51,896 nt of DNA, taken from positions 1 through 51,896 of IMG/VR virus record IMGVR_UViG_3300035494_000021; one strand, written 5' to 3'. The notes under the pieces are model-generated. The model was not told where the DNA came from and did no database searches. It was given only the letters and a program-made list of their open reading frames with translations. How positions within the stretch are numbered: the stretch's first letter is position 1; the number at the start of each line of letters is the position of its first letter. The stretch comes from a virus. Both the position numbers and the translations under genes were made by a program. Below are positions 1 to 51,896 of this stretch, piece by piece.

Positions 1-127
1 GTGAGCCCTAAGCCGTATATTTGTTCAAAGCGAAGCAACTATACGAGGGCCGACGTATCTGGGAACAATGTTGTGATTATAATCCTATAGTAGTTATCAT
101 AACCATCTATAAAGGCTACTCATAAGA
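1..127. repeat. Exact 127-bp copy of the window end (51770-51896): closure overlap of a circular or terminally redundant assembly
   Basis: Both ends read base by base. Positions 1-127 and 51770-51896 are identical, so the unique length is 51769 bp. Confidence 0.95.
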
Positions 128-135
128 ATAGCCTT
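112..135 (-). terminator. Hairpin just downstream of the RNA polymerase gene (weak terminator candidate)
   Basis: AAGGCTA (112-118) pairs with TAGCCTT (129-135): 7-bp stem, 10-nt loop. On the minus strand it is followed by TATAGAT, which is only a weak U tract. Confidence 0.3.
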
Positions 136-156
136 GAAGATAATTATTCTAATGCA

Positions 157-2316
157 TTATTCGAAGTAGTAAGCTTTCTTAGAAGCTAGAATCTCTTCTG
201 TTACCACTTTAGTACGACCTTTAAGTGGGTTGTATGGCATGATAGTTTCACCCAGTTGTTCTTCAATGTGGGCAACCATATCGTTAGCTACGAACATATC
301 ATGGTAAACAGCTGGCAGTACTTCAGCCATCATACGAGGTGCATCTTCTAAACATACACGGAATTGGTCGTGGATAGTTGAGAAACCACGTAGACCAAGC
401 TCTTTACATTTCAGAGCAATCTTACGAGCCATCACAGCATCGATACCTTGTACCAAGTGTACTGGTGCATAGTAAGTGAAGTTCATCTTCTGCAGTTCGC
501 CTACAGTTTGAGATGAGATGCTCCAACCTTTCTGACCACCATTAGACTCCTCAGTAGCACCAAAGATAACACCTTTACCAGCATTACCTAGAGATACGAT
601 GAAGTATTTATCTGTCAGTGATACAGTAGCTTCACCTTTCTTAGTACATAGGAAGCCATCTAGGTGACGGTATGCAAACCAGTCTTTGCCTTCTTTCTCT
701 AGCTTACGACCGAATGCATTACGCAGTTCACTGATGAAGTGCTCAACTTCACGACCTAGTGCATTGTTGATACCTTCAATAACAACATCAGAACAGAACT
801 CATTACGATCAATCTCAGCAATACCAAGATCAGCCATAGTTGGTTCAAACTTCTTATAACGTAGAGATGGTACACCACCACCGTACTGGATTGCCATGAA
901 TGGAGTCTTAATCTCATTACGAGAGATAGTACGATTAGGACGTAGTGCCTCAGCAACACCTTGTGCTACCTTGTTCACTTCTTCCGCAGACATCATGTAT
1001 GGATCCGCAGGACGCTCATCATACTCAGCAATAAGACCACATGCACGAGCAAGTACTGGAGCACCAGCTAGGATAGACAGGATTTGTGCTCCTGAACACT
1101 TAGCATCTGGACCAAAGCCGATACGAACATCAGCTTCACCTTTGTCTTGGTAATCCACGTAGTATTGAGCGAATGTAACGTACATGAACATAGTCTTGCT
1201 CATTGCATTATTCTCAATAAGCTTGCGTAGTGCTTGAGATGGGTTAGCTGCAACCCAACGTAGAGTAGCATCTTCCATGTATACTGAACCAGCACCATCA
1301 ACAATCTCATTCTCTAACTCATTCATGAACATAGTGTACTGAACTGAGTCTTTGTATGTGATGTTTGATACTGTATGGAAACACAAAGCTTTAGCCATAC
1401 CAGATGCTTGTGGGTTTGGACCAGCGTGAGCGAATTGGTACATACGACCACGCAAGTCACCAAAGTATTCTGAGTACAGCTCATCCTCATCCATCAGCTC
1501 TAGTGAACCAGCAATTACGTGAGCATTGTCTTTGAACACTTGAGGTACAACCATATTGTTCTGCTCGTACCAACCAATTGCTTCACCAATTGCCAGTAGT
1601 AGTGGCTTGTTAACTTGTTGTGCTACTGATTCGATGAACTCGAATGCATCACGTACTTCTTTAGATGTACCGTCCTTCTTAGGATTGAAACGTTGTTTAA
1701 CACGCTCTTTACGACGTGTCTCAATCGTGATAGGTGAAGTCTGGTGAGCAATACCTTTACGGCTAATGCAGTTACCAATGAACTTCTGAGTACGAACATA
1801 ACCACCATCTACCACTTCAACAAGGTTAGCCGCTTCTGCTAGCTTAAGACCTGCTACCAATAGTGCATTCCAATGCTCCTTGGTGTCTTGTACGTTGTTG
1901 AAGATAGTGTCATGCAAGTTCTTGTTAGCATGAGCAATATTACGCATGTGTTTCCACAGCATGGTAGATTGAATTGCCTCCAGTGAGTAAGGCTCATCCA
2001 ACAATGCAATAACACGAGTTAGCTGAGTAGCTAGAGTCGCCACATAGAATGGGTTTAGATTACCTAAGTATGTGTAAGTGTAGAAACCAAGAGGACGACC
2101 ATCCTCTGTGCATGGCATAACCTGAGTTAGCTTGTTCTGCTTCTCAAGAGTGTGCATGAACATCTGTGCAATGAAGCCAGCTGATTTCTGCTCGATGTTA
2201 TCAATCTCAATCATTGATGCATCGAATTTCTGTTCTGCTTTGAACTTGAATAGTTCGTTGTTTGCTTTGTTGAATTGAACTGAAGTTGCGATAGTAGTGT
2301 TAGTAGTAGAAGTCAT
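157..2316 (-). CDS. T7-family single-subunit DNA-dependent RNA polymerase (compact, 719 aa)
   Basis: Ordered catalytic motifs: DAKCSGAQILS (cf. T7 motif A DGSCSGIQH), RNEIKTPFMAIQYGGG (motif B R..K...M...YG) and STIHDQF (motif C HDSF). A GGAG lies 7 nt upstream of the ATG. Confidence 0.85.
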   Translation of the reverse strand: MTSTTNTTIATSVQFNKANNELFKFKAEQKFDASMIEIDNIEQKSAGFIAQMFMHTLEKQNKLTQVMPCTEDGRPLGFYTYTYLGNLNPFYVATLATQLTRVIALLDEPYSLEAIQSTMLWKHMRNIAHANKNLHDTIFNNVQDTKEHWNALLVAGLKLAEAANLVEVVDGGYVRTQKFIGNCISRKGIAHQTSPITIETRRKERVKQRFNPKKDGTSKEVRDAFEFIESVAQQVNKPLLLAIGEAIGWYEQNNMVVPQVFKDNAHVIAGSLELMDEDELYSEYFGDLRGRMYQFAHAGPNPQASGMAKALCFHTVSNITYKDSVQYTMFMNELENEIVDGAGSVYMEDATLRWVAANPSQALRKLIENNAMSKTMFMYVTFAQYYVDYQDKGEADVRIGFGPDAKCSGAQILSILAGAPVLARACGLIAEYDERPADPYMMSAEEVNKVAQGVAEALRPNRTISRNEIKTPFMAIQYGGGVPSLRYKKFEPTMADLGIAEIDRNEFCSDVVIEGINNALGREVEHFISELRNAFGRKLEKEGKDWFAYRHLDGFLCTKKGEATVSLTDKYFIVSLGNAGKGVIFGATEESNGGQKGWSISSQTVGELQKMNFTYYAPVHLVQGIDAVMARKIALKCKELGLRGFSTIHDQFRVCLEDAPRMMAEVLPAVYHDMFVANDMVAHIEEQLGETIMPYNPLKGRTKVVTEEILASKKAYYFE

Positions 2317-2363
2317 GATAGTTTCTCCAATAGTTTCGTTCGTTAGTTAGTTAATGTTAATGA

Positions 2364-2705
2364 TTAAAGTGCAGCTAGGATGTTTTGAGCAACTTCTAGT
2401 GAGACAGTCTCAGAGTCAACACAAGAGATTAGCATTTCTTCTAATTGCTCTTTATTAACAGCAGTCTCATTAAGGTACATAGCAACCTCTTGATCAATTG
2501 AGAATGAGTCAACATAAGCAATAAGTAGCATTTCAAGTTGTTCAGTAAACATTTGTAGTTCCTCTTGATTAGATAAGATGTATTGTGCTTCTTCTAGTGG
2601 TGTGGTATCAGAATCCACGTTAGCAATCAACAGCTCCTCTAGATTGTAGTTCATAGAGAAAGCAAGTTTGATAGCACGGATAGAAGCAGTAGTGAAAGTA
2701 GTCAT
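2364..2705 (-). CDS. Acidic hypothetical protein with three internal repeats (L-I-A-x-VDS-D/E-T type)
   Basis: ATG at 2705 is preceded by GGAGATATACC. Repeats are LLIANVDSDTTPLEEAQ, LLIAYVDSFSIDQEVAM and MLISCVDSETVSLEVAQ. Same motif as in the 50334-50660 protein. Confidence 0.7.
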   Translation of the reverse strand: MTTFTTASIRAIKLAFSMNYNLEELLIANVDSDTTPLEEAQYILSNQEELQMFTEQLEMLLIAYVDSFSIDQEVAMYLNETAVNKEQLEEMLISCVDSETVSLEVAQNILAAL

Positions 2706-2814
2706 GGTATATCTCCAATAATAAAGTAACAAGAAAGAATGAATCAGGTAACGGGTCCCATCAGACCAACATCATCCAATAATCCTTCCTCCCCACTATT
2801 TCTGGCCACCAATT

Positions 2815-2826
2815 GAGTGTGTCATA
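2815..2826. repeat. Copy 1 of the short intergenic repeat AGTGTGTCATA
   Basis: gAGTGTGTCATA at 2815-2826. Second copy at 2901-2911. Confidence 0.6.
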
Positions 2827-2900
2827 ACCTCATAAGGAACCTTATTTGGCTTGAATCCTACCTTCTTCCACCTACAAAATTTATCTTATGTCTCGAATCA

Positions 2901-2911
2901 AGTGTGTCATA
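2901..2911. repeat. Copy 2 of the short intergenic repeat AGTGTGTCATA
   Basis: Exact 11-mer shared with 2816-2826. Confidence 0.6.
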
Positions 2912-2924
2912 TCTTAGTTACTGC

Positions 2925-2945
2925 GTCAAGGACGACTGTAATAAG
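2925..2945. repeat. Copy 1 of the 21-nt intergenic repeat GTCRAGGWCGACTGTAAYWAR
   Basis: GTCAAGGACGACTGTAATAAG here versus GTCGAGGTCGACTGTAACTAA at 3089-3109. Confidence 0.6.
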
Positions 2946-2989
2946 AATTTGCATTCAACAATAATCAGCATTATAGCTAACTATAATAC

Positions 2990-3001
2990 GGGCAATTGCC
3001 C
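2990..3001. repeat. Perfect 12-bp palindrome GGGCAATTGCCC
   Basis: Read directly. It sits in the 393-bp non-coding region upstream of the repeat-protein/RNA polymerase genes. Confidence 0.7.
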
Positions 3002-3088
3002 ATAATAAGTAACTAGCCTCCACCTATTTCTTGGGCTTTACTAGTTACCTATTTTCTAGAACCTAATGGATGTTATCAATCTCCCTCT

Positions 3089-3109
3089 GTCGAGGTCGAC
3101 TGTAACTAA
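3089..3109. repeat. Copy 2 of the 21-nt intergenic repeat
   Basis: 16 of 21 positions match 2925-2945. The same relative order with the AGTGTGTCATA repeat is not kept. Confidence 0.6.
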
Positions 3110-3125
3110 ACCTGCATTTCTACAA

Positions 3126-3497
3126 TTAGTAGCCCCACAGTCTCTGCATTGGTCTTTCTGGATCTGCATCTAGGTGAATGATACAGCATCCAGCCACATT
3201 GGATTTCTTGATGCCAATGCCGTAGAAACCCATCTGCATTGCTCGCTGAACCACTTTCCAGCTTTGTTCCGTAGTTACGCGGAAATCAATCGCCGCGCGC
3301 GTGTGAGCACCAGGCTTTGCCTTGGCCGCTTCGATAGAGTGCTGAGGACTACGGTAACCACTTGTTACATAGAATGGAAAACCCATTTCGGTGCGTAGCG
3401 CCTGTACTGCATTCATAAAAGGGATGAATGCTGGGTGATTATTCCACTCGCCGGTTTCCTGACAACGTAGGTCTTTCTCAGTAAAATTTGTCCACAT
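3126..3497 (-). CDS. Peptidase M15-family peptidoglycan peptidase (endolysin candidate)
   Basis: SGYRSPQHS ... GAHTRAAIDF ... CIIHLD matches the H-x-D / H zinc-ligand layout of M15 (VanY/DUF882-like) peptidases. AAGGA RBS before the ATG at 3497. Confidence 0.7.
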   Translation of the reverse strand: MWTNFTEKDLRCQETGEWNNHPAFIPFMNAVQALRTEMGFPFYVTSGYRSPQHSIEAAKAKPGAHTRAAIDFRVTTEQSWKVVQRAMQMGFYGIGIKKSNVAGCCIIHLDADPERPMQRLWGY

Positions 3498-3508
3498 ATT
3501 AATTTTCC

Positions 3509-4081
3509 TTACATGGTGAAGAACCAGTGACCGCCCTGAATATAGAGCGGAGACAATAAGTTTTGCCCATCTACGGACACACACTGTCGCCCTGTGTGGC
3601 GCTCACAGCGCAGCCATTCCGGATACACGCGTTGCCCAGAGGCGTCCAGAGTCAGCCCCTGTGGTGCGACAAAATGGGTGGCAGTAGAGAGGGGATGGCG
3701 AGAGCCGTCTCTGTATGAGAGGACGAGAGAGACGATCTCTGATAGCGCTCGTAAATCATCAGCCGCCTCTGGCGTAGGGATGTCAAAATTTTTAACAGTG
3801 CCTAGAGTCCACGAGAACTGTGCTCTCTGCCAAACGACCTCACAGGCTGATGAAGGGAAGCGCTTGTCTAAAACGCGATTGTATGTGACGTCTATGACGC
3901 CTCTAATACCCATATGCCCTTCACCTCGCGCTTCCCAGTAGGCGTTCTGGATATAGCACTTAGCGTTGTCATCAAGTTTGGCATTAAGCTTCACCAGATT
4001 TGTCTCACCAAGTGCCCAAGTTGGGTAAATTAGCAGCAAAATTATTGCCACTATCATCAAATAGGGTAAGTATTTTTGCAT
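3509..4081 (-). CDS. SleB-like cell-wall hydrolase with N-terminal transmembrane or signal-anchor segment
   Basis: NAYWEARGEGHMGIRGVIDVTYNRV matches the Hydrolase_2 (SleB) signature. Hydrophobic N-terminus LPYLMIVAIILLLIYPTWALG. AGGAG RBS before the ATG at 4081. Confidence 0.7.
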   Translation of the reverse strand: MQKYLPYLMIVAIILLLIYPTWALGETNLVKLNAKLDDNAKCYIQNAYWEARGEGHMGIRGVIDVTYNRVLDKRFPSSACEVVWQRAQFSWTLGTVKNFDIPTPEAADDLRALSEIVSLVLSYRDGSRHPLSTATHFVAPQGLTLDASGQRVYPEWLRCERHTGRQCVSVDGQNLLSPLYIQGGHWFFTM

Positions 4082-27736: not shown

Positions 27737-29761
27737 CTACATCCAAGCATCATAATTAGCGCTTGGAGAGCTGAATGCTACAACAACTGCATCTGATACG
27801 TTATCAGTGAAGTCGTCGTGACCTGTACCACTACCCTCGCCAGTCATGTTTAGAACTTCGCGTTGACAGTGAGGCAGGTGTTTATGTTCACTCGGCATCT
27901 TAATCCTTCCCTGAGACCAATAAGGAATTGTGTTTAGGAAGCGAGCCACTTTATCATTAGAGCTTTTATCACGAGGGATTGGCAAGACACGGACACTACC
28001 ATCACGAACGAACTGCTGGTTCAAATATTGACCAGAAGACTTGTCTTCCATATACAGTGCGACGGGCAGCATTTGCGGATATCGTAAATCCAACTGTGTC
28101 TTTTCTTTCCAAAAAGCTTCAATAACTCTCTTGAGCTCTGGGGTCTCCCACTTCCCTAGTTCGACATCAAGCAGGTACAGGTTATTGCTTCTGCAAATTC
28201 CCCAGTAACAGATTACACTATAGTCAGAGTAATCTTGCTTAGTCGAAGCCGTATCCGCAGTCATAAATGTCTTACGGATAATTCCTTTGTCAAAGTTGTG
28301 TACATCATATTCACCTTCTACCCACCACTCATCAGATACAAGACCCACGCCTTTGGCTGTTGGATCTCCTAGGTATTGAGAGTTGAAGGTATATGGAGCC
28401 GCTTCTCGCATATTCTGAAGAGATTCTAATGACTTACGAGATGGCCAAAGTGCCGACTCGCCTTCGCCTCTCTTCAGGTCGTACAAGTATGGTACTGCAT
28501 GCGTATACGCTTGCTTCTGGATAAGAGTATTATACCATCTTGTTGTGCCACACTCAGGTGTGATGATTCCTGGGATGTTGAGATAAACGTATTTATCTGC
28601 TGATCCACCACGAAGAATGTAACCTACTAGGTCTTCTGCGTGCACTCGCTGCATGATTATAATCATCGGAGTGCGTGGACAAGGAATCTCATTGCCTTCT
28701 GCGTCTTGAATAACACCATCGTTCGCTAGGCGCGACATAAACGTGTTATCAAAACGGTCATTGATTTCTGAGCGAACTGTATTGGAATATGCATCTTTTG
28801 GTTTGATAGCATCGTCCACTACGAAGCATCCAGAATAAATTGCCGACAGTGAGCCAGCCCCTTTACCAGTCATTTTACCACCCGTAGGGACGGCGTGCAT
28901 TACACCTGACTTGGTTGTGCCCCATCGCTCCAGTGAGCGCTTGGAAGGGTCGATTCGAACAGCTGGAAAGATTTTCTGGAATAGCTCATCGGTCATAATC
29001 TGACGAATGTAGCCACTTGATTCTGCCACAACGTCATCCGCATAAGACGTAATGATATTGTGACTTGTTGGATTGTGACAGAATGAATACAAAGGAAGGA
29101 AGATACTAAGTATTTGTGTTTTTGAATGTCGTGGAGGAATACATACGATACCTCGGTCTATTTCGCCATTAACCACTTTCTGACAGAACTCGAAAATAAT
29201 CTTGTGGAAGTCCTGCTCTTGGAACGGGAAGCCCATCTGGATTTGGAAGCACCACTTGGAGAAGATTTCAAAACCATCTTCTTTATTAAGTAGAATCTCT
29301 CGAACTCTGTTAGCATCTTCAGTTGTAATCTTTGAGATATCAACCAGCAGAGGGAAATGAATAATATCCTCTACTAGCGACGACACGTCAGCTTCACCAG
29401 AGATTGCTTCTGCAACAGCAGCTTCTACTGATCTGGATTGACTGCCTTCTGTGATCGCCTTCTTAATCTCTTCAGAATACATTTTGTTATTCTTATGATC
29501 GCCTTCAGCATATGAATTTAGCTGAGCCTTGACCAATGAGAGTAACACCGCATTGTCGTCGACACCCTGACCGACCATTTCGTCTTTCAAGGCTTCGTGG
29601 TACTTGTCTCGTACATACGGATTTGTTGTGAGATACGTTCGTAACTCAGGTAGTGGCATCATGATACCGCGAGCACGAGATACTTTCAATAAGTCCCCGT
29701 AGTGCTGCATCATAACTGCAACTAGGAAATTGTCGAATTGCTGATCAACAGGTTCAGCCAT
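27737..29761 (-). CDS. terL: Terminase large subunit with ~190-aa N-terminal extension
   Basis: Walker A-like IVCIPPRHSKTQ, followed by ATPase and nuclease halves (FMTADTASTKQDYSDYSV). 674 aa. Sits directly upstream of the portal gene. Confidence 0.8.
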   Translation of the reverse strand: MAEPVDQQFDNFLVAVMMQHYGDLLKVSRARGIMMPLPELRTYLTTNPYVRDKYHEALKDEMVGQGVDDNAVLLSLVKAQLNSYAEGDHKNNKMYSEEIKKAITEGSQSRSVEAAVAEAISGEADVSSLVEDIIHFPLLVDISKITTEDANRVREILLNKEDGFEIFSKWCFQIQMGFPFQEQDFHKIIFEFCQKVVNGEIDRGIVCIPPRHSKTQILSIFLPLYSFCHNPTSHNIITSYADDVVAESSGYIRQIMTDELFQKIFPAVRIDPSKRSLERWGTTKSGVMHAVPTGGKMTGKGAGSLSAIYSGCFVVDDAIKPKDAYSNTVRSEINDRFDNTFMSRLANDGVIQDAEGNEIPCPRTPMIIIMQRVHAEDLVGYILRGGSADKYVYLNIPGIITPECGTTRWYNTLIQKQAYTHAVPYLYDLKRGEGESALWPSRKSLESLQNMREAAPYTFNSQYLGDPTAKGVGLVSDEWWVEGEYDVHNFDKGIIRKTFMTADTASTKQDYSDYSVICYWGICRSNNLYLLDVELGKWETPELKRVIEAFWKEKTQLDLRYPQMLPVALYMEDKSSGQYLNQQFVRDGSVRVLPIPRDKSSNDKVARFLNTIPYWSQGRIKMPSEHKHLPHCQREVLNMTGEGSGTGHDDFTDNVSDAVVVAFSSPSANYDAWM

Positions 29762-32858: not shown

Positions 32859-32881
32859 CTAGTGGGCGAGGGACGAGCCCT
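32859..32881 (-). promoter_or_regulatory. Promoter-like motif copy a (AGGGCTC-N12-CTAG)
   Basis: Minus strand reads AGGGCTCGTCCCTCGCCCACTAG, followed by AAGGTGTCAGTTATG. It fills the 36-bp gap between ligase and the next gene. Confidence 0.5.
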
Positions 32882-37269: not shown

Positions 37270-39324
37270 TTAGTGGATTCCAGCGTAGTTGATGTCGAAT
37301 TGGATATCACATGCCATATCTCTACGCATTTTGATGTATGCATTGGTACGAGCCATTGCGGTTAACAATATCTCTTTCCACAGTGCTTCTGTACCGCTCT
37401 TGCATTGGATAATTACTTCATCGTGGAACTGACCGGATACTAGTGGTTCGCGGTTGTAGCGTTCACGACATACATGGTGAATCATCTCCACCCATGTATC
37501 GAATACCCAAGCACCTGTACCTTGACAGAGTGTTGAGAAACGGTCTTTCTCGTGCTTGAGGTAATACCAGAAGCCGTTGGCAGGGTTACGTTGCCATTTG
37601 ACACCGATAGCCTGTTTGACTTCCATTGATTCTGCGATTTCATTGATAGACCAGTTAAGATCCCAATAAGCATCGAACAGACGTTGTGCGATCGGCATCT
37701 CGATTTTCGCATCACGAGCAAGTCGTGGTGGTCGAGCGCCATACTGACAGCCGTAGTTGGTACGTTTGCCTAGTGCACGGATTGGTTTGATTTCTTTGAT
37801 GCGAGCCTTCTGCTCCTCGGTTGGAACTATGCGCTCTAGGTCTACATCAACATACAAATCATAATCAGCTTGAGTGATAAACGAGCCGAGTACTGCGATC
37901 GTCAAGTGCGGGTCAAAGCCTTCTGTCTGCTGAGATTTAACATACTCAGGGTCTAGTGGCATTTGATAGTGGTGCTTACAGCGGTCTTCTAGAGAAGATA
38001 AGTCACTTCCCAAAGAGACGTATCCATCTGGTGCGACAAGTAGAGAGCGCAGTTCTTTACCGCCCCAAACTCGATCGCTAGGAACGTTAACGATTTCGGC
38101 ATGTCGTAGACGTAGCGTGTTAGTAAATCCAGCAGCTCGTGCTTCGAGCCAACCATCTTTATGGTCTCTGAGCCATCCGTTGACAATTCCCAATCGATGC
38201 TTAACAATCGATAGTCCTTTGAGACGTTCCAGAGTTGGGTGTTCTTCGATGAGTCGCTCAACACCAGGGTCAAGTTCGCCACCTGAGTTTTTGACGTTAA
38301 TCTGTGGAATTGCTCGCTCAGAGCCATCATCATTCCGTTTATACTCGAATGTCTCTGGAACCCATCCCAGACTGAACAACCACGATTTAAGCTGCTGAGG
38401 AGAGTTTGGATTTCCGAGGGCGTTGCCATCATGATATAGGTATCCTTCTGGGTCAGCATCATCGAAGTCTACATCATAATTCAAGCAGAACATAGCCCAC
38501 TTGATTCCTAATGATGGTTTGCCTGTACGGGTATCTACCCATGTACCAGACAATTGGCCATTCATCTTGAACGGCTTCTTCGGACGACGGATTTCTTTGA
38601 ACTCAGGCACTAGTGGCATTACTTCAATCAGAGCTTCAGTTCGCTCTTCTTTCGTCTTTGTCCACTCTGCTGAGTACTCTTGCGCTTTAGGAACATCAAG
38701 TTTCCACTTGGTTTCTTGTGCATTGCGTAGATGACGGCCTTTCATATTTAAATGAGCAATCATCTTCTTCGCCATCTCTTCATTATCATCATAAAGATCA
38801 AGCATACGTTTCCACAAACGTTCCCACAGCTTCTTCTGAATACGACAGTCTTGCATTACGCGTCGACCATACTCAGACATACTCAGACCAACCCAGTCTT
38901 CGATTGGTGGTTTAGGTACACCGAACATTTCGCCATAGTCCGCAAGACCGTAGCGGTGACGTTCAGGTTCCAAATACCATGCCATATACAGAGTATCGAT
39001 GATGTAGCACTCAGCTAATTCGAATCCGAAATACTTGGCAAGGGCGACACCATCATATGTTAGGCCGTTATGCATTACCAAGTTCCAGCCCTGATTCAGC
39101 CACTCTTGTAGGTCAGAGATTGGGCGGATATCTTTACAGACTTTGGAATCGACTGTGTTGTGCGCAGTTGAGAATAGTATCTCTGTACCATCCTCAAACT
39201 TTGCGCCGAAGTTGTGCAGCTGGCGGTCATCACCTTGGCGCTCTAGGTCATGCAGAAGACCAGTAGTCTCAATATCCGCAAAAACCAGCGGCGCGTCCAG
39301 TGGCATTAGGTAGAAGTTTTCCAT
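37270..39324 (-). CDS. Family A DNA polymerase with 3'-5' exonuclease domain
   Basis: FADIETTGL (Exo I), HNGLTYD (Exo II), SLGSDLSSLEDR (motif A), RALGKRTNYGCQYG (motif B) and SGQFHDEVII (motif C). Confidence 0.9.
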   Translation of the reverse strand: MENFYLMPLDAPLVFADIETTGLLHDLERQGDDRQLHNFGAKFEDGTEILFSTAHNTVDSKVCKDIRPISDLQEWLNQGWNLVMHNGLTYDGVALAKYFGFELAECYIIDTLYMAWYLEPERHRYGLADYGEMFGVPKPPIEDWVGLSMSEYGRRVMQDCRIQKKLWERLWKRMLDLYDDNEEMAKKMIAHLNMKGRHLRNAQETKWKLDVPKAQEYSAEWTKTKEERTEALIEVMPLVPEFKEIRRPKKPFKMNGQLSGTWVDTRTGKPSLGIKWAMFCLNYDVDFDDADPEGYLYHDGNALGNPNSPQQLKSWLFSLGWVPETFEYKRNDDGSERAIPQINVKNSGGELDPGVERLIEEHPTLERLKGLSIVKHRLGIVNGWLRDHKDGWLEARAAGFTNTLRLRHAEIVNVPSDRVWGGKELRSLLVAPDGYVSLGSDLSSLEDRCKHHYQMPLDPEYVKSQQTEGFDPHLTIAVLGSFITQADYDLYVDVDLERIVPTEEQKARIKEIKPIRALGKRTNYGCQYGARPPRLARDAKIEMPIAQRLFDAYWDLNWSINEIAESMEVKQAIGVKWQRNPANGFWYYLKHEKDRFSTLCQGTGAWVFDTWVEMIHHVCRERYNREPLVSGQFHDEVIIQCKSGTEALWKEILLTAMARTNAYIKMRRDMACDIQFDINYAGIH

Positions 39325-41579: not shown

Positions 41580-43289
41580 TTACGTAGACTTACCGACTTG
41601 CTTATCTTTGTACAAATCGTCTTCCCAGTTCTTCTGTTGAAGTCTGCCCGTACGTTGGGTATAATAGGTCTTAATGTAACCTGTCTTACCATACTTACGG
41701 TTCTTCAGCACTCGGAATAGAGAGCAATCTGGATCAACAGCCATCTTATTACGCTCAAAGCCAAACATCATGTGCGAGTAACGTTGTAATGCACGAGAGC
41801 CTGTGAATTGAGACTCAAGCACTTTACCACCATTTTCGTGAGACTTTTGTCCTTTAGGTGGAGCGTTTAAGTGGCTAAAGATAATCGCGGTGAAGTCAAA
41901 TTTTACAGCAAGCTTAGAGAACTCATCAGCAACTTTGCCGATAAATTCGTTGCGCTCAGAGGTGTTTAAACCTTCCGACAATGTTGTTGCGTTATCAATC
42001 ATCACTCGGTCAAACAAATGACCTTGTGCACGAATAACGCTTTTTATCTGAGACCAAGTGGTTTCAGGGTCTTCGATTGTAGTAATATCCCAGACTGTAA
42101 TATAGTCTGAGAGGAATTCCACAGTGGTGCGTAGCTGGTCTTTGTTGTACGGCTCTTGTCCATCCTCAAGAGGGACGTGATACGGTACGTTGTCCAGCTT
42201 ACCTGCAACAGACTTAAACGTCTCTGCACCTGTTTCTTCCATCATAATCATTAGCGTTCGCTTCTGATTATACTTAGCATCATGAGCAGCTAACTCATGA
42301 CCTAGTAGTGTTTTACCACAACCAGTACCGCCACCGATTGACCACAATTCCTTTGTGCGGATACCATAGGTGATCTTGTTTATGCCTGACCATGGAGTAG
42401 GGTCGCCCCACTCAGGATCGGACAAGATATCATCCATGATATCGGATGCGCAAAGGGTGTTAGTTGATTTGGGCTTAGCGGCCTGGAATACGCAGGCATC
42501 TCGAGTTGCTTTGAGTCGCCCTGCCTGAAGACACAGGTTTGCGTCTTTCTCAGGAAGGATAGCGACTTGCGCATCTGGCAAGATTTTACGCGTTTCTTTC
42601 GCTGCATCACGCCCCGCTTGGTCGTCGTCATAAACTAGTACCACCTGCTTGAATCGGGATTGTATCTCTCCGGCCATACGTCCAATAGCCATTGCTACTG
42701 AGTTTACACCAGCAGGCAATGAGACAACTGCATAATCATAATGAGCTGCAGTGGACATCATACGGAGAATTTTGCGTAACGCAATAGCGTCTTCCTCACC
42801 CTCAGTGATGAATAGTGTTCCACCACTTACGCGTTTGGCACGCTCCCAACCATACAGGTCGGCACCCTTCACATCACCAACGTTCCACATGACTTTGGTG
42901 TGCAAGAGTTTGATCTTGTAACCAGTAATTACACCACCCTTAGTGTACGGGTGGGCTAATGCATATGGAGTCTTGCCATCATACTCAGAGAATATTAGAC
43001 GCACACCAAAGTGCTTCCAGTCTTCTGGGTCGATGCTACGATGTTTCACGGCGAATGGTGGACATTCACGAATTTCATCAACTTCTGCTTGGATTTCTTC
43101 AGGAGTCTTGCGGTGGATCTCTCCCGGTTTTGGAGGATTGTCACCGTAAGGGTTCTTGTCGACATGCTTACAGCAGAAGCAAAATCCACTAAACGAATCA
43201 TCATCGTTCAGAAAGATTTGAAAGGATTTGGATTGGCTTTTACACTTTGGTTGCGTACATTTACGACGCTCTACACATTGTCCAGCCAT
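41580..43289 (-). CDS. Bifunctional primase-helicase (T7 gp4-like)
   Basis: N-terminal Cys-rich zinc motif (CTQPKC...CFCCKH), TOPRIM motifs FITEGEEDAIAL and VYDDDQAGRDAA, and a DnaB-type Walker A GGGTGCGKT. Confidence 0.9.
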   Translation of the reverse strand: MAGQCVERRKCTQPKCKSQSKSFQIFLNDDDSFSGFCFCCKHVDKNPYGDNPPKPGEIHRKTPEEIQAEVDEIRECPPFAVKHRSIDPEDWKHFGVRLIFSEYDGKTPYALAHPYTKGGVITGYKIKLLHTKVMWNVGDVKGADLYGWERAKRVSGGTLFITEGEEDAIALRKILRMMSTAAHYDYAVVSLPAGVNSVAMAIGRMAGEIQSRFKQVVLVYDDDQAGRDAAKETRKILPDAQVAILPEKDANLCLQAGRLKATRDACVFQAAKPKSTNTLCASDIMDDILSDPEWGDPTPWSGINKITYGIRTKELWSIGGGTGCGKTLLGHELAAHDAKYNQKRTLMIMMEETGAETFKSVAGKLDNVPYHVPLEDGQEPYNKDQLRTTVEFLSDYITVWDITTIEDPETTWSQIKSVIRAQGHLFDRVMIDNATTLSEGLNTSERNEFIGKVADEFSKLAVKFDFTAIIFSHLNAPPKGQKSHENGGKVLESQFTGSRALQRYSHMMFGFERNKMAVDPDCSLFRVLKNRKYGKTGYIKTYYTQRTGRLQQKNWEDDLYKDKQVGKST

Positions 43290-45845: not shown

Positions 45846-45870
45846 CTAGTGGGCAAGCGTAGCGAGCCCT
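45846..45870 (-). promoter_or_regulatory. Promoter-like motif copy b (AGGGCTC-N14-CTAG)
   Basis: Minus strand reads AGGGCTCGCTACGCTTGCCCACTAG followed by ATATTGATAG. It overlaps the stop of the 47-aa ORF. Confidence 0.55.
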
Positions 45871-50099: not shown

Positions 50100-50344
50100 A
50101 CGCCCACCAACAAGCAAAGACCATCAGCGATAGATTCAGCAGCACAAGTTACAAAGATAAGTGCCGCCGCAATTAGCATGTGTTTTACAGTCATGATACC
50201 CATACCAGTCTCAAGGCCACTACAGCCAATGATACGACCGCCACTGCTTGGCAGACGTCTTTTCGAACACCCGCGATTAGCAGTAGCATGATTGCCCCAG
50301 TTAGACTTAGAGCCATTATTCCTAGGGCTGCTGTCATAAAGCAT
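50096..50344 (-). CDS. Small hypothetical protein with C-terminal hydrophobic segment (start uncertain)
   Basis: 82-aa ORF. Internal starts at MGIM or MTVKH would give a ~35-aa membrane peptide (HMLIAAALIFVTCAAES). Confidence 0.35.
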   Translation of the reverse strand: MLYDSSPRNNGSKSNWGNHATANRGCSKRRLPSSGGRIIGCSGLETGMGIMTVKHMLIAAALIFVTCAAESIADGLCLLVGV

Positions 50345-50660
50345 TTCTTACAGATTTGATAATCTGATCAGCATATCCTTTATCACACGCACCCGAATGG
50401 ACAGCATCGCCCAGTACAGGAATTAGTTTCTCGCCACCACGAACACGTTCTAGGAGACGATCAGCAAACGCCATAGTCATGGTGTCTGAGTCAACCATAG
50501 CGATACAAACAGACTCAATAGCAGTGATGTTAGTTAGGTTCGACATATCTCGGTTCTCCTGAATGATTTCTCGTAAGCGAGCTAATGAAGATTTAGGCCA
50601 TGAGTTAAGCATGTTGTTCTCCATCAGAATGAATAAAAAGTACTCTACTATCAACGGCAT
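50334..50660 (-). CDS. Hypothetical protein with one VDSDT-type repeat (paralogous to 2364-2705)
   Basis: ATG at 50660 lies 8 nt after GGAGG. An alternative ATG is at 50612. Contains CIAMVDSDTMTMAFADRLL. It is the first gene after the long control region. Confidence 0.6.
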   Translation of the reverse strand: MPLIVEYFLFILMENNMLNSWPKSSLARLREIIQENRDMSNLTNITAIESVCIAMVDSDTMTMAFADRLLERVRGGEKLIPVLGDAVHSGACDKGYADQIIKSVRNAL

Positions 50661-50811
50661 CGGAGTCACCTCCAGTAGAGCGAAAGGGAGTAAGGGAGTT
50701 TAGGCGTTGTGTCATCTAGGTGCCTTGACCACTATCACATTCTCTTAGCGTTAGGAATGAGTACGGAACAATTTACAGAGTTATCGGTTGTTCAGTCGAT
50801 ATTACCAAAAT

Positions 50812-50835
50812 CTAGTGGGCGAGCGTAGCGAGCCT
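50812..50835 (-). promoter_or_regulatory. Promoter-like motif copy c (AAGGCTC-N14-CTAG)
   Basis: Minus strand reads AAGGCTCGCTACGCTCGCCCACTAG followed by ATTTTGGTAA. It lies ~150 nt upstream of the first early gene. Confidence 0.55.
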
Positions 50836-50899
50836 TTGGCTTTTAGCTTTCCCTCTAGGGCTAGGTTCTGTTGGAAATCACGAGTGACATAAGTCATTC

Positions 50900-50960
50900 A
50901 TAGATTACTCATAATTATAATGTTAACTAATATTATAATCATAATTATGAATAATAGACA
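50900..50960. other. AT-rich block with repeated TCATAATTAT
   Basis: Reads ctcataattataatgttaactaatattataatcataattatgaataataga. TCATAATTAT occurs twice, 30 nt apart. Confidence 0.6.
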
Positions 50961-51014
50961 TCTTGTTGTAGACAGTGTCTGTGACACATATTCATACAAC
51001 ACTAGTTACAATTG

Positions 51015-51436
51015 GGTCGATACGACCATATTATAGAGCGAAGCTCATTATGACAGTTACGGACATCTTCATACCTATTATGGCCTTTATGTTGACCGTT
51101 ACGGTCTTATGTAGGTGAACGACGTATCATACCTATTGTCTGTGCCTGACGTTCTGTACCTTGCGGTGTGAAGTCGTAGAGTCACTCCACAGTCACTTAC
51201 AAACTCATACCACAAAGGCATAAGCAGTTAAGGACATACGACCGAAGCGGTCATAGTCACTCACACACCCAGAGCGGATTCAGCTCAACAAGGACAGACA
51301 TCGGGTACACCATAATCATACTACATAGTCATACAATAATAGGGTCGTTCCGACCATAATACTGAGGCGATGCAGGTTATGTTTCAGCAGATGCTGATGA
51401 TGTAGTAGAACCTGAGGTCTATGGCTCGTCTCGAGC
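51015..51436. repeat. Array of five 13-nt hairpins (5-bp GC-rich stem, 3-nt loop)
   Basis: The five are GGTCG-ATA-CGACC (51015-51027), GACCG-TTA-CGGTC (51094-51106), GACCG-AAG-CGGTC (51240-51252), GGTCG-TTC-CGACC (51343-51355) and GCTCG-TCT-CGAGC (51424-51436). The first and fourth share ~55 nt of flanks (TCATACAA ... CGACCATAWTAYWGAG.CGAWGC). Confidence 0.75.
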
Positions 51437-51592
51437 TTATTAGTCATACTCATAATCAGCCAGCTTGATATATGGGCGACTTTCAAAGTCCGAGACGTCT
51501 GGCAACCATTGCTGGCGACCTTAGGTTCCTTTGGTGCGTACTAGCGTGAGTTTCCAAAGCGGAGAACATTACGGCATATACACTACCAATAT

Positions 51593-51615
51593 CTAGCGGG
51601 CGAGGTACGAGCCCT
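51593..51615 (-). promoter_or_regulatory. Promoter-like motif copy d (AGGGCTC-N12-CTAG)
   Basis: Minus strand reads AGGGCTCGTACCTCGCCCGCTAG followed by ATATTGGTAG. Confidence 0.55.
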
Positions 51616-51720
51616 TTCCCTTATGGTTACTTTGTTACTTATGATATAATCAGCATTTGGAGTAAATACAACCGGAGCATCTTATACCTATGTTGCTTGA
51701 TGGGTTCTCCACTCCTGCCC

Positions 51721-51743
51721 CTAGTGGGCGACAACGGAGCCCT
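51721..51743 (-). promoter_or_regulatory. Promoter-like motif copy e (AGGGCTC-N12-CTAG)
   Basis: Minus strand reads AGGGCTCCGTTGTCGCCCACTAG followed by GGGCAGGAG. Confidence 0.5.
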
Positions 51744-51753
51744 AGTGCTGTTC

Positions 51754-51778
51754 CTAGCGGGCGAACGTAGTGAGCCCT
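51754..51778 (-). promoter_or_regulatory. Promoter-like motif copy f (AGGGCTC-N14-CTAG)
   Basis: Minus strand reads AGGGCTCACTACGTTCGCCCGCTAG followed by GAACAGC. It is 10 nt from copy e, and its upstream half is also present at 1-9. Confidence 0.5.
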
Positions 51779-51896
51779 AAGCCGTATATTTGTTCAAAGC
51801 GAAGCAACTATACGAGGGCCGACGTATCTGGGAACAATGTTGTGATTATAATCCTATAGTAGTTATCATAACCATCTATAAAGGCTACTCATAAGA
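51770..51896. repeat. Second copy of the 127-bp terminal overlap
   Basis: Identical to 1-127. It starts inside a copy of the promoter-like motif at 51754-51778. Confidence 0.95.

Follow-up and report, generated by a model that had tools for sequence, protein, structure and literature searches.

Hairpins, GTATGA boxes and an AT-rich block in the gene-free region of a Chaseviridae phage: candidate elements of a terminal-repeat junction

Introduction

What use might a phage have for a tight cluster of small GC-rich hairpins in a stretch of its genome that holds no genes? This question is raised by positions 50880-51440 of the IMG/VR virus record IMGVR_UViG_3300035494_000021, a sequence of 51,896 nucleotides (nt) whose whole length is referred to here as the window. 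A first-pass annotation, made from the sequence alone, described five hairpins and an AT-rich block beyond a group of promoter-like motifs, and read them as a replication origin like the primary origin of phage T7 or as DNA-hairpin promoters like those of phage N4. That view has held up in part. The elements are not a chance pattern, a relative keeps four of the five hairpins with compensatory change, and the setting is T7-like. However, the AT-rich block does not lie directly past the promoters, the hairpins lack what an N4 promoter needs, and the annotation overlooked the predicted boundary of a terminal repeat among the hairpins. The five hairpins and the AT-rich block are non-random elements of a phage non-coding control region, and they more likely serve genome-end formation and packaging than a replication origin.

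How the ends are recognised, cut and duplicated in phages with exact direct terminal repeats is far less clear than packaging by the cos or headful route (PMC13595956). The Chaseviridae, to which the window belongs, have linear, non-permuted genomes with terminal repeats of ~3 kbp (ICTV profile, PMC12842549), and in PYps23T a 2.3-kb terminal repeat has been demonstrated experimentally (PMC8762354). No description exists for this family of the polymerase's promoters or of any cis-acting site (PMC12842549).

A Conserved Cluster of Hairpins and Boxes

The window is a complete, circularly assembled genome of the Chaseviridae (Nefertitivirinae). Positions 51770-51896 are identical to 1-127, and these 127 nt are the overlap of the circular assembly, leaving a unique genome of 51,769 bp. 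Features near either end therefore continue across the join, and the region of interest extends into 1-156. Immediately upstream of it, in the direction of transcription and across the join, lies the gene for a T7-like RNA polymerase.

All five hairpins (H1 to H5, Table 1) are present as first described, each with an exact GC-rich 5-bp stem and a 3-nt loop, and each followed on the plus strand by ATA or TTA. Could they be there by chance? The 51.8-kb genome has eight exact hairpins of this geometry with at least four GC pairs, and five of the eight lie within 420 bp of the region. No other 561-nt segment of the genome has more than one. When 50880-51440 was shuffled 5000 times with dinucleotide content preserved, the mean was 0.013 hairpins and the maximum two, so that none of the 5000 shuffles reached five. 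Judged by the rate in the rest of the genome, the count in the region has a Poisson P of 3e-10. Nor is a hairpin of this type found in front of any gene cluster elsewhere in the genome, unlike the 23-nt promoter-like motif discussed below.

The hairpins have companions. GTATGA occurs seven times on the minus strand of the region, compared with an expected 0.63, and these boxes alternate with the hairpins; a position-matrix scan found no comparable box elsewhere in the genome. The AT-rich block, with the repeated sequence that had been noticed earlier, is the most AT-rich 60-mer of the genome and is also found, with indels, in Vibrio phage vB_VpaM_VPs20 (VPs20). Eight small hairpins and seven GTATGA boxes in all fall within ~260 nt either side of the boundary predicted below. 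One detail of the first description needs amending. The proposed ~55-nt repeats around the hairpins at 51015 and 51343 are partly borne out, as 29 nt at 79% identity and 20 nt at 85%, with a 9-nt indel between the two parts.

The conservation of these elements can be judged best against VPs20, a member of the same subfamily and the closest record, with 71% identity in the region of interest and 79% in the replication genes. A search for closer relatives covered IMG/VR, JGI metagenomes and a collection of 5.8 billion proteins. VPs20 was the only relative with an RNA polymerase more than 53% identical to that of the window, all others having 53% or less. As VPs20 alone is close enough to align, true covariation between orthologs rests on this one pair. 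Between the two phages the region matches their coding DNA in its degree of conservation, and identity reaches 90-97% around H4-H5.

Four of the five hairpins are kept in VPs20. H1 and H5 are identical, the latter within a stretch of 97% identity. H2 has become GATCG-TTA-CGATC, a change of C:G to T:A on both arms that keeps the pairing. H4 keeps its stem although all three loop bases are replaced (AAT), and its outer stem CAGTA/TATTG has changed to CCCTA/TAG(A)GG, which still pairs. A wider alignment of 12 hairpins was drawn from the window, VPs20 and three Aeromonas phages. Its rows were picked as perfect hairpins, which makes the pairing complete by construction, and the informative part is which positions vary. 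No change is seen at stem positions 1, 4 and 5, whereas three types of pair occur at position 2 and two at position 3, always complementary. The elements are thus far beyond chance, conserved with compensatory change and confined to this region, and by the usual comparative criteria they would count as functional.

More distant relatives have related structures in the corresponding place. GAGTC-N3-GACTC recurs 520-800 nt past the RNA polymerase gene in pAh6-C, pAh6.2TG and the relatives L010, L012 and L015. It lies past the terminus in Aeromonas phage BUCT696 and ahead of it in Aeromonas phage ZPAH14, 559 nt past the polymerase stop codon. BUCT696 also has GGTC-GAA-GACC beside tandem GTATGA boxes ~100 nt ahead of its end. 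In the Aeromonas clade a 5-bp stem in the conserved stretch around the terminus, GCTGC/GCAGC, has changed to GCTAC/GTAGC, again a compensatory double change (G:C to A:T).

A Predicted Genome End between H3 and H2

Where would the ends of the packaged chromosome lie? The record of ZPAH14, whose RNA polymerase is 52% identical to that of the window, has identical ends of 3373 bp. Its right boundary reads ...GGAGCGTGACTC/TGACCGTCACC, the slash marking the end of the repeat (in shorter form ...GCGTGACTC/TGACC, or GTGACTC/T), and lies 757 nt past the polymerase stop codon. The linear record of BUCT696 ends at a homologous position with ...GCGAGCGTGACC (...GCGTGACC/, or GTGACC/) and starts with CTGGCTCTCACACC. 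In Myduc the boundary annotated by PhageTerm is ...CAGGTGAC/GGAC (GTGAC/GGAC), and the record of JL1 ends ...AAGTC/GGAC. The PhageTerm-annotated repeat of Mangalitsa and Myduc begins ~210 nt ahead of the polymerase gene and ends 909 and 1053 nt past it, within the gene-free region. A GTGACTCT-like motif is found 687-911 nt past the polymerase gene in seven lineages; the rest of these non-coding regions does not align. These right-hand motifs were compared by pattern matching, an alignment of the motif across genera by MAFFT being poor. The window and VPs20 both retain the GTGACTCT motif, at almost the distance from the polymerase stop codon that is seen in ZPAH14 (747 nt in the window, 757 nt in ZPAH14). 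On the left, the boundary gives a good alignment with the start of the ZPAH14 repeat (...GATGAT/GTTGGTCTGATGGGACCCGTT), and the repeat predicted for the window is 3361 bp, compared with 3373 bp in ZPAH14.

By homology with these relatives the terminus is predicted to fall between H3 and H2, and this placement is held with considerably more confidence than the packaging mechanism proposed below. Of the gene-free stretch, 747 nt would lie inside the repeat and ~510 nt outside. H5, H4 and H3 would occupy the last 260 bp of the repeat, at the right-hand tip of the packaged chromosome, and H2, the GAGC hairpin, H1, the GTGTC hairpin and the AT-rich block the first 280 bp of unique DNA after the left-hand copy.

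The surroundings of the terminus in relatives are of interest here. Boxes of the GTATGA kind (GTATGAGAC) flank it on both sides in ZPAH14, pAh6.2TG and BUCT696. In five Aeromonas phages (L020, at 2950-3500, and L028, L006, L029 and L030) ~560 nt before the terminus and ~120 nt after it are nearly invariant while the flanks diverge; their neighbouring promoter region is only about 70% identical. The invariant ~560 nt could also contain an unrecognised RNA or a platform for protein binding. Among the Cleopatravirinae, an 8-bp inverted repeat (CTTCTTTC...GAAAGAAG) ends ~10 nt ahead of the terminus in JL1 and Mangalitsa, and in the gene-free region of Mangalitsa (2826-3958) GCATGT, with AT-rich sequence after it, is repeated ~14 times, to either side of the repeat boundary.

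A further feature of the cluster was considered and set aside. H4/H1 and H3/H2 form nested pairs of inverted repeats centred no more than ~6 nt from the predicted terminus. However, palindromic stems with TATG-rich flanks read equally well as direct or inverted repeats, and VPs20 has no H3.

Table 1. Positions of the features discussed, numbered as in the window.
Feature	Position	Strand	Remarks
Hairpin H1, GGTCG-ATA-CGACC	51015-51027	both	exact 5-bp stem, 3-nt loop; identical in VPs20
Hairpin H2, GACCG-TTA-CGGTC	51094-51106	both	73-85 nt beyond predicted terminus
Hairpin H3, GACCG-AAG-CGGTC	51240-51252	both	61-73 nt ahead of predicted terminus
Hairpin H4, GGTCG-TTC-CGACC	51343-51355	both	AT-rich flanks extend stem
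Hairpin H5, GCTCG-TCT-CGAGC	51424-51436	both	245-257 nt within predicted terminal repeat
AT-rich block	~50897-50957	both	nearly palindromic; 87% A+T; TCATAATTAT at 50909 and 50939; inverted repeat
GTATGA box	51444-51449	-	precedes H5 on minus strand; about -270 from terminus
GTATGA boxes, tandem pair	51329-51334 and 51316-51321	-	-155 and -142 from terminus
GTATGA box	51205-51210	-	-31 from terminus
GTATGA box	51127-51132	-	+47 from predicted terminus; same GGTATGATAC box past terminus in ZPAH14 and BUCT696
GTATGA box	51069-51074	-	+105 from terminus
GTATGA box	50992-50997	-	+182 from terminus
Hairpin GTGTC-TGT-GACAC	50975-50987	both	VPs20: GTGTC-GATA-GACAC
Hairpin GAGC-GAA-GCTC	51036-51046	both	VPs20: GAGTC-GAA-GACTC
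Palindrome or hairpin TCAGCA-GA-TGCTGA	51384-51397	both	VPs20: TCAGC-TTAT-GCTGA; stem retained, loop new
Imperfect hairpin GTGAC-ATAA-GTCAT, beside AT-rich block	50884-50897	both	perfect 5-bp stem in VPs20; 17-nt core identical in both phages
Predicted right end of direct terminal repeat	51178-51188; boundary 51179/51178	-	GGAGTGACTC/T, longer GGAGTGACTC/TACGACTTCACACC; 747 nt past polymerase stop codon; by homology
Predicted terminal repeat, distal part	51179-51896	-	includes 51770-51896, duplicate of 1-127
Predicted terminal repeat, proximal part	1-2770	-	RNA polymerase gene and 113-aa gene; left boundary predicted at 2771/2770
Promoter-like motif f	51754-51776	-	GGGCTC-ACTACGT-TCGCCC-GCTAG; ortholog in VPs20
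Promoter-like motif e	51721-51743	-	ortholog in VPs20
Promoter-like motif d	51593-51615	-	followed by ATATTGGTAG; ortholog in VPs20
Promoter-like motif c	50812-50834	-	~145-190 nt upstream of first early gene; ortholog in VPs20
Two further copies of the promoter-like motif	32859-32881 and 45846-45868	-	orthologs in VPs20
T7-like RNA polymerase gene	157-2316	-	PHROG profile; 719 aa; sole polymerase of that kind
gp4-like primase-helicase gene	41580-43289	-	PHROG profile
PolA-type DNA polymerase gene	37270-39324	-	PHROG profile
Large terminase subunit gene	27737-29761	-	PHROG profile
First early gene	50334-50669	-	from the list of open reading frames

What the Junction Elements Might Do

The tentative proposal made here, by analogy with better-known phages, is that the hairpins, the GTATGA boxes and the AT-rich block are cis-acting elements of a terminal-repeat junction region, used in end recognition, processing and packaging. 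The junction would exist in the replicating concatemer, where the packaging machinery would recognise it and cut at the GTGACTC/T boundary, and the 3.4-kb repeat would be duplicated across the junction for each packaged genome. The GTATGA boxes on both sides of the cut would be sites for a multimeric protein, most plausibly, again by analogy, the small terminase subunit. The hairpins, small and GC-rich with stems that continue into AT-rich flanks, would be able to extrude, and would mark the sites of cutting, nicking or priming or help these steps along. Starting at motifs f, e and d, the phage polymerase would transcribe into the junction.

Several observations weigh against this proposal. 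H3 lies in a 64-nt segment that is missing from VPs20, so at least one hairpin is dispensable. The Cleopatravirinae have at most one GC-rich triloop hairpin (0-1) in the equivalent region, and a different box, GCATGT; such hairpins are therefore no family-wide requirement for terminal-repeat formation. A position matrix found no GTATGA boxes at the predicted left boundary. The position of the terminus depends on a single PhageTerm annotation and on where other authors or assemblers chose to end their records, and both public assemblies of this phage, being identical circular permutations, carry no end information. These elements might also work in replication, transcription or DNA entry, the terminase role being an analogy. 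Finally, a dimeric protein that binds duplex DNA sequence-specifically would account equally well for the invariant G..CG/CG..C positions.

The gap ahead of the predicted left boundary has a palindrome of its own. GGGCAATTGCCC, at 2990-3001 and ~220 nt ahead of that boundary, has the flanks TTATTAT and GTATTAT and the same form as H1 and H4. The corresponding gap has GGGCA-TGT-TGCCC in pAh6-C and two GTGTC-GAA-GACAC hairpins in Spp001.

Neighbouring Genes and Promoter-Like Motifs

All long open reading frames (ORFs) of the window are on the minus strand. The gene-free stretch runs from 156 to 1 and then from 51769 to 50670, 1,256 nt in which no ORF exceeds 56 aa, and public gene calls on the same contig place no gene for 1,265 nt past the RNA polymerase gene. 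Could the small ORFs be genes after all? This was ruled out by indels of 64, 13 and 1 nt relative to VPs20, which argue against hidden genes, and by the fact that no gene is called there in any relative. The layout is the same in each relative examined (VPs20, pAh6-C, Spp001, pAh6.2TG, ZPAH14, Mangalitsa and Myduc), running from lysis genes across a short gap to the polymerase gene, and then through 1.1-1.3 kb devoid of genes to many small early genes.

Two neighbouring genes deserve mention. Just upstream of the polymerase gene is a gene for 113 aa (2367-2705, minus strand) with repeats of LE-x-LLI-x-x-VDS-x-T, homologous to Spp001_60 (E = 5e-20). Aeromonas phage pAh6-C has a longer polymerase (843 aa), and similar repeats make up its N-terminal ~66 residues. 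That this repeat module is separate in some phages and fused to the polymerase in others suggests a possible accessory domain of the polymerase. The other is an AP2-domain gene that VPs20 has between the AT-rich block and the first early gene (3202-3522 of its record; 3424-3744 of L001). It is without counterpart in the window and is probably an insertion of the homing-endonuclease type.

Motif copies c, d, e and f were found where they had first been reported, and all six copies in the genome have the same orientation. On the minus strand the 23-nt motif reads GGGCTC-(5 or 7 nt)-TCGCCC-R-CTAG, often followed by ANWTTGGTAR, and it is kept at all six orthologous places in VPs20. Its CACTAG core is similar to T7-group promoters from -5 to +1. 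The middle is 5 or 7 nt long, depending on the copy, and nearly always forms 1-2 bp around a 3-nt loop. On the plus strand, the template of the genes, the motif becomes GGGC-GA-stem-GTA-stem-GA-GCCC. This form has tandem G.A pairs, and copies b, c and f also have a C-GTA-G loop. The C-GNA-G loop is the stable loop of the N4 type (PMC4496689). At comparable places the Aeromonas and Shewanella relatives have GGCTC-TAC/TTC-GAGCC hairpins, which give GTA or GAA on the template strand. Hairpin-containing promoters of the N4 loop type are, as a pattern in the sequence, a lead rather than a result.

The region has five sigma-70-like sites, compared with 4.3 in shuffled sequence, each with only 9/12 matches, and no strong host promoter could be assigned to the AT-rich block or the GTATGA boxes. 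Upstream of the polymerase gene the sole sigma-70-like site scored is ATGACA-16-TAAGAT (2910-2883), also with 9/12 matches and no better than in shuffles. This site and a conserved TATGACACAC element (both within 2771-3126, minus strand) fall just outside the predicted left boundary of the repeat. They would therefore lie upstream of the polymerase gene only at its right-hand copy or in concatemeric DNA.

Other Explanations for the Cluster

What if the region is, after all, a transcription-activated origin of the T7 type? In this scenario transcripts from f, e and d (or c) would open the DNA, the AT-rich block would melt, and the gp4-like primase-helicase would load and prime, possibly at GTC sites in the hairpin stems. 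The place is right. The T7 primary origin, in which an AT-rich segment comes after tandem promoters, lies directly downstream of its RNA polymerase gene (gene 1), and here too the region directly follows the polymerase gene and a cluster of promoter-like motifs. As a sequence pattern, the 23-nt motif with its T7-like CACTAG core has six copies, and three of these form a cluster past the polymerase gene. Among the phage's genes are those for a T7-type primase-helicase and a PolA-type polymerase, and the AT-rich block, nearly palindromic, is strongly AT-rich as in T7. The hairpin region has GTC at twice the frequency of the genome (29 vs 14), and primase pentamers of the T7 type occur at H1 (GGGTC, plus strand) and H4 (TGGTC, minus strand), although this is the specificity of T7 and may not be that of this phage.

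However, the AT segment is not immediately downstream of the promoters, as the origin layout first proposed would have it. The block lies 638 nt downstream of motif d, and upstream rather than downstream of motif c, its nearest motif. Past motifs f and e there is only a weaker AT-rich patch (51625-51665), and in ZPAH14 the AT-rich blocks are at different positions. The region has no initiator-type iterons and no DnaA boxes (TTWTNCACA), bar one match with a single mismatch within the AT-rich block. The array of hairpins and boxes has no counterpart in T7. Cumulative GC skew is monotonic and gives no origin signal, because all genes are on one strand. A T7-type origin is considered unlikely, although its place after the polymerase gene, the promoter-like motifs, the T7-type replisome genes and the extreme AT-rich block would all suit one. 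A related observation concerns the pentamer GGGTC, which is found 38 times on the plus strand of the whole window and once on the minus strand. GGGTC is the recognition site of the T7 primase, and the bias may reflect coding or replication asymmetry.

The elements might instead act in transcription or as RNA. Hairpins in the transcript from f, e and d, or in the non-template strand, would make the phage or host polymerase pause or attenuate, or would shape a leader that times the early genes. The region would be transcribed in the direction of the genes if f, e and d are promoters, and RNA of the minus strand folds better than shuffled sequence (z = -5.4). H1, H3 and H4 have extended stems that use G.U pairs on the minus strand, which are C.A mismatches on the plus strand. 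However, H2 and H5 extend better on the plus strand, which folds well too (z = -4.6). An attempt to assign the functional strand from the G.T wobbles in the extended stems was accordingly given up as inconsistent, with three hairpins favouring the minus strand and two the plus strand. As terminators, 5-bp stems are weak, and a search of the region for intrinsic terminators found a T-rich (U-rich in RNA) tail at H4 only. No Rfam family matched, and a search at gathering thresholds over the whole window and permissive thresholds over the region, together with a tRNA scan, gave nothing meaningful. Furthermore, on the right-hand copy of the repeat the transcripts would run off the end of the DNA 61 nt past H3. 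This explanation is given a rather small chance.

A bolder scenario joins the two kinds of hairpin as structure-specific signals of the Nefertitivirinae. The promoters of the T7-like polymerase would be template-strand hairpins of the N4 type, with C-GNA-G loops, tandem G.A pairs and a variable inner stem. The CG-closed triloop hairpins at the repeat boundary would be nicking or priming sites for duplication of the 3.4-kb repeat during packaging, driven by transcription from the hairpin promoters. If this were true, promoters of the hairpin type would explain the failure of sequence searches to find the promoters of the family. It is nevertheless a speculative idea with long odds.

Perhaps the region instead controls DNA entry, as proposed for the injection stop signal of T5. 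The repeat, with the polymerase gene, would enter first, transfer would pause at the structured region, and it would resume through the polymerase acting from f, e and d. The layout matches T5 Repeat Region 3 (described below), the repeat has the polymerase gene as its main gene, and directly past this gene come three promoter-like motifs. However, the paired DnaA boxes that are central to the T5 proposal are absent from the region, and two-step DNA transfer as in T5 is not known for Chaseviridae. The position of the sole sigma-70-like site, just outside the left boundary, also argues against simple expression from the left end first. Control of entry thus seems improbable.

Another possibility is that the hairpins never extrude and are operator-like palindromes, 13-bp sites of the form G-N-N-C-G-N3-C-G-N-N-C that a dimeric phage or host protein, for instance an early regulator or a protein of the genome ends, binds as duplex. 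In all 12 sites stem positions 1, 4 and 5 and their partners are invariant, and TA(W) precedes most of them on the minus strand. In ZPAH14, GGTCGACC palindromes, the same half-sites without a spacer, lie upstream of the left boundary. This does not readily explain why positions 2 and 3 vary freely yet are always complementary, or why H2 changed on both arms between orthologs. Structure is also suggested by the AT-rich flanks, which lengthen the stems and at H4 covary. For helix-turn-helix dimers, moreover, a centre-to-centre distance of 8 bp between half-sites would be unusual. Operators are likewise improbable.

The weakest explanation is that the five hairpins are themselves N4-type promoters read by the phage polymerase. 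Like the N4 early promoters they are small, with a 5-bp stem (5-7 bp in N4) and a 3-nt loop, in a leader region upstream of early genes, and the polymerase is of the T7 family, with no promoters described so far for the Chaseviridae (PMC12842549). However, the N4 virion polymerase needs a 5'-GNA-3' loop closed by C:G on the template strand, for extrusion and stability, and the loop bases contact the polymerase (PMC4496689). All five hairpins are closed by G:C on both strands. Their loops, H1 to H5, are ATA, TTA, AAG, TTC and TCT on the plus strand and TAT, TAA, CTT, GAA and AGA on the minus strand, so that GNA appears only at H4 (GAA, minus strand). With flanks that share only TA(W) 5' on the minus strand and no conserved start region (-17 to +1 in N4 promoters), no such hairpin before other gene clusters where the 23-nt motif does occur, and no giant virion polymerase (the largest ORF, 1210 aa, is in the tail region), this explanation is very hard to sustain, and the 23-nt motifs come closer to N4 promoters than the hairpins do.

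Implications and Comparison with Known Systems

If the hairpins, boxes and AT-rich block do belong to a terminal-repeat junction, then a pattern that looks origin-like in raw sequence may instead mark a genome end. This matters for annotating and re-orienting circular phage assemblies. For one clade there is now a map that comprises a GTGAC(T)C boundary motif, flanking arrays of boxes, hairpins with compensatory changes and a six-copy candidate promoter conserved in two phages.

The closest analogues of such a junction would appear to be the T7 concatemer junction and Repeat Region 3 of T5. The T7 junction has pac sequences, arrays of short repeats beside the repeat and a phage promoter near the right end, and transcription has a role in T7 packaging. 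A hairpin intermediate was proposed for it by Chung, Nardone and Hinkle (1990), as cited in PMC4925675, and the T7 terminal repeat is given as 160 bp. The differences are considerable. The predicted repeat here is ~3.4 kb and carries the polymerase gene, whereas that of T7 is non-coding; the virion is that of a myovirus, and it is within the predicted repeat that the promoter-like motifs are found. No sequence likeness to T7 is seen in the GC-rich triloop hairpins or the GTATGA boxes. Nevertheless, this phage and T7 share a non-permuted genome with direct terminal repeats and a T7-family polymerase. In both, arrays of short repeats and inverted repeats lie beside the boundary, which in this phage is a predicted one, promoter or promoter-like motifs read towards it, and one copy of the repeat has to be duplicated for each packaged genome.

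The likeness to T5 lies in the layout. Repeat Region 3 of T5 is a conserved, untranslated region of ~1.2 kb, rich in repeats and palindromes, most of which is in the long terminal repeat and which overruns ~270 bp into unique DNA (bioRxiv 10.1101/866236). The T5 repeat is longer (~10 kb, compared with 3.4 kb here), its main genes are A1/A2/dmp rather than an RNA polymerase gene, and its Repeat Region 3 has DnaA boxes, which the region described here does not. Given the predicted boundary, the window has the same arrangement, with ~1.2 kb of conserved DNA that is not translated at its long repeat's inner end and an overrun of a few hundred bp into unique DNA, and in both cases this region is more conserved than the neighbouring genes.

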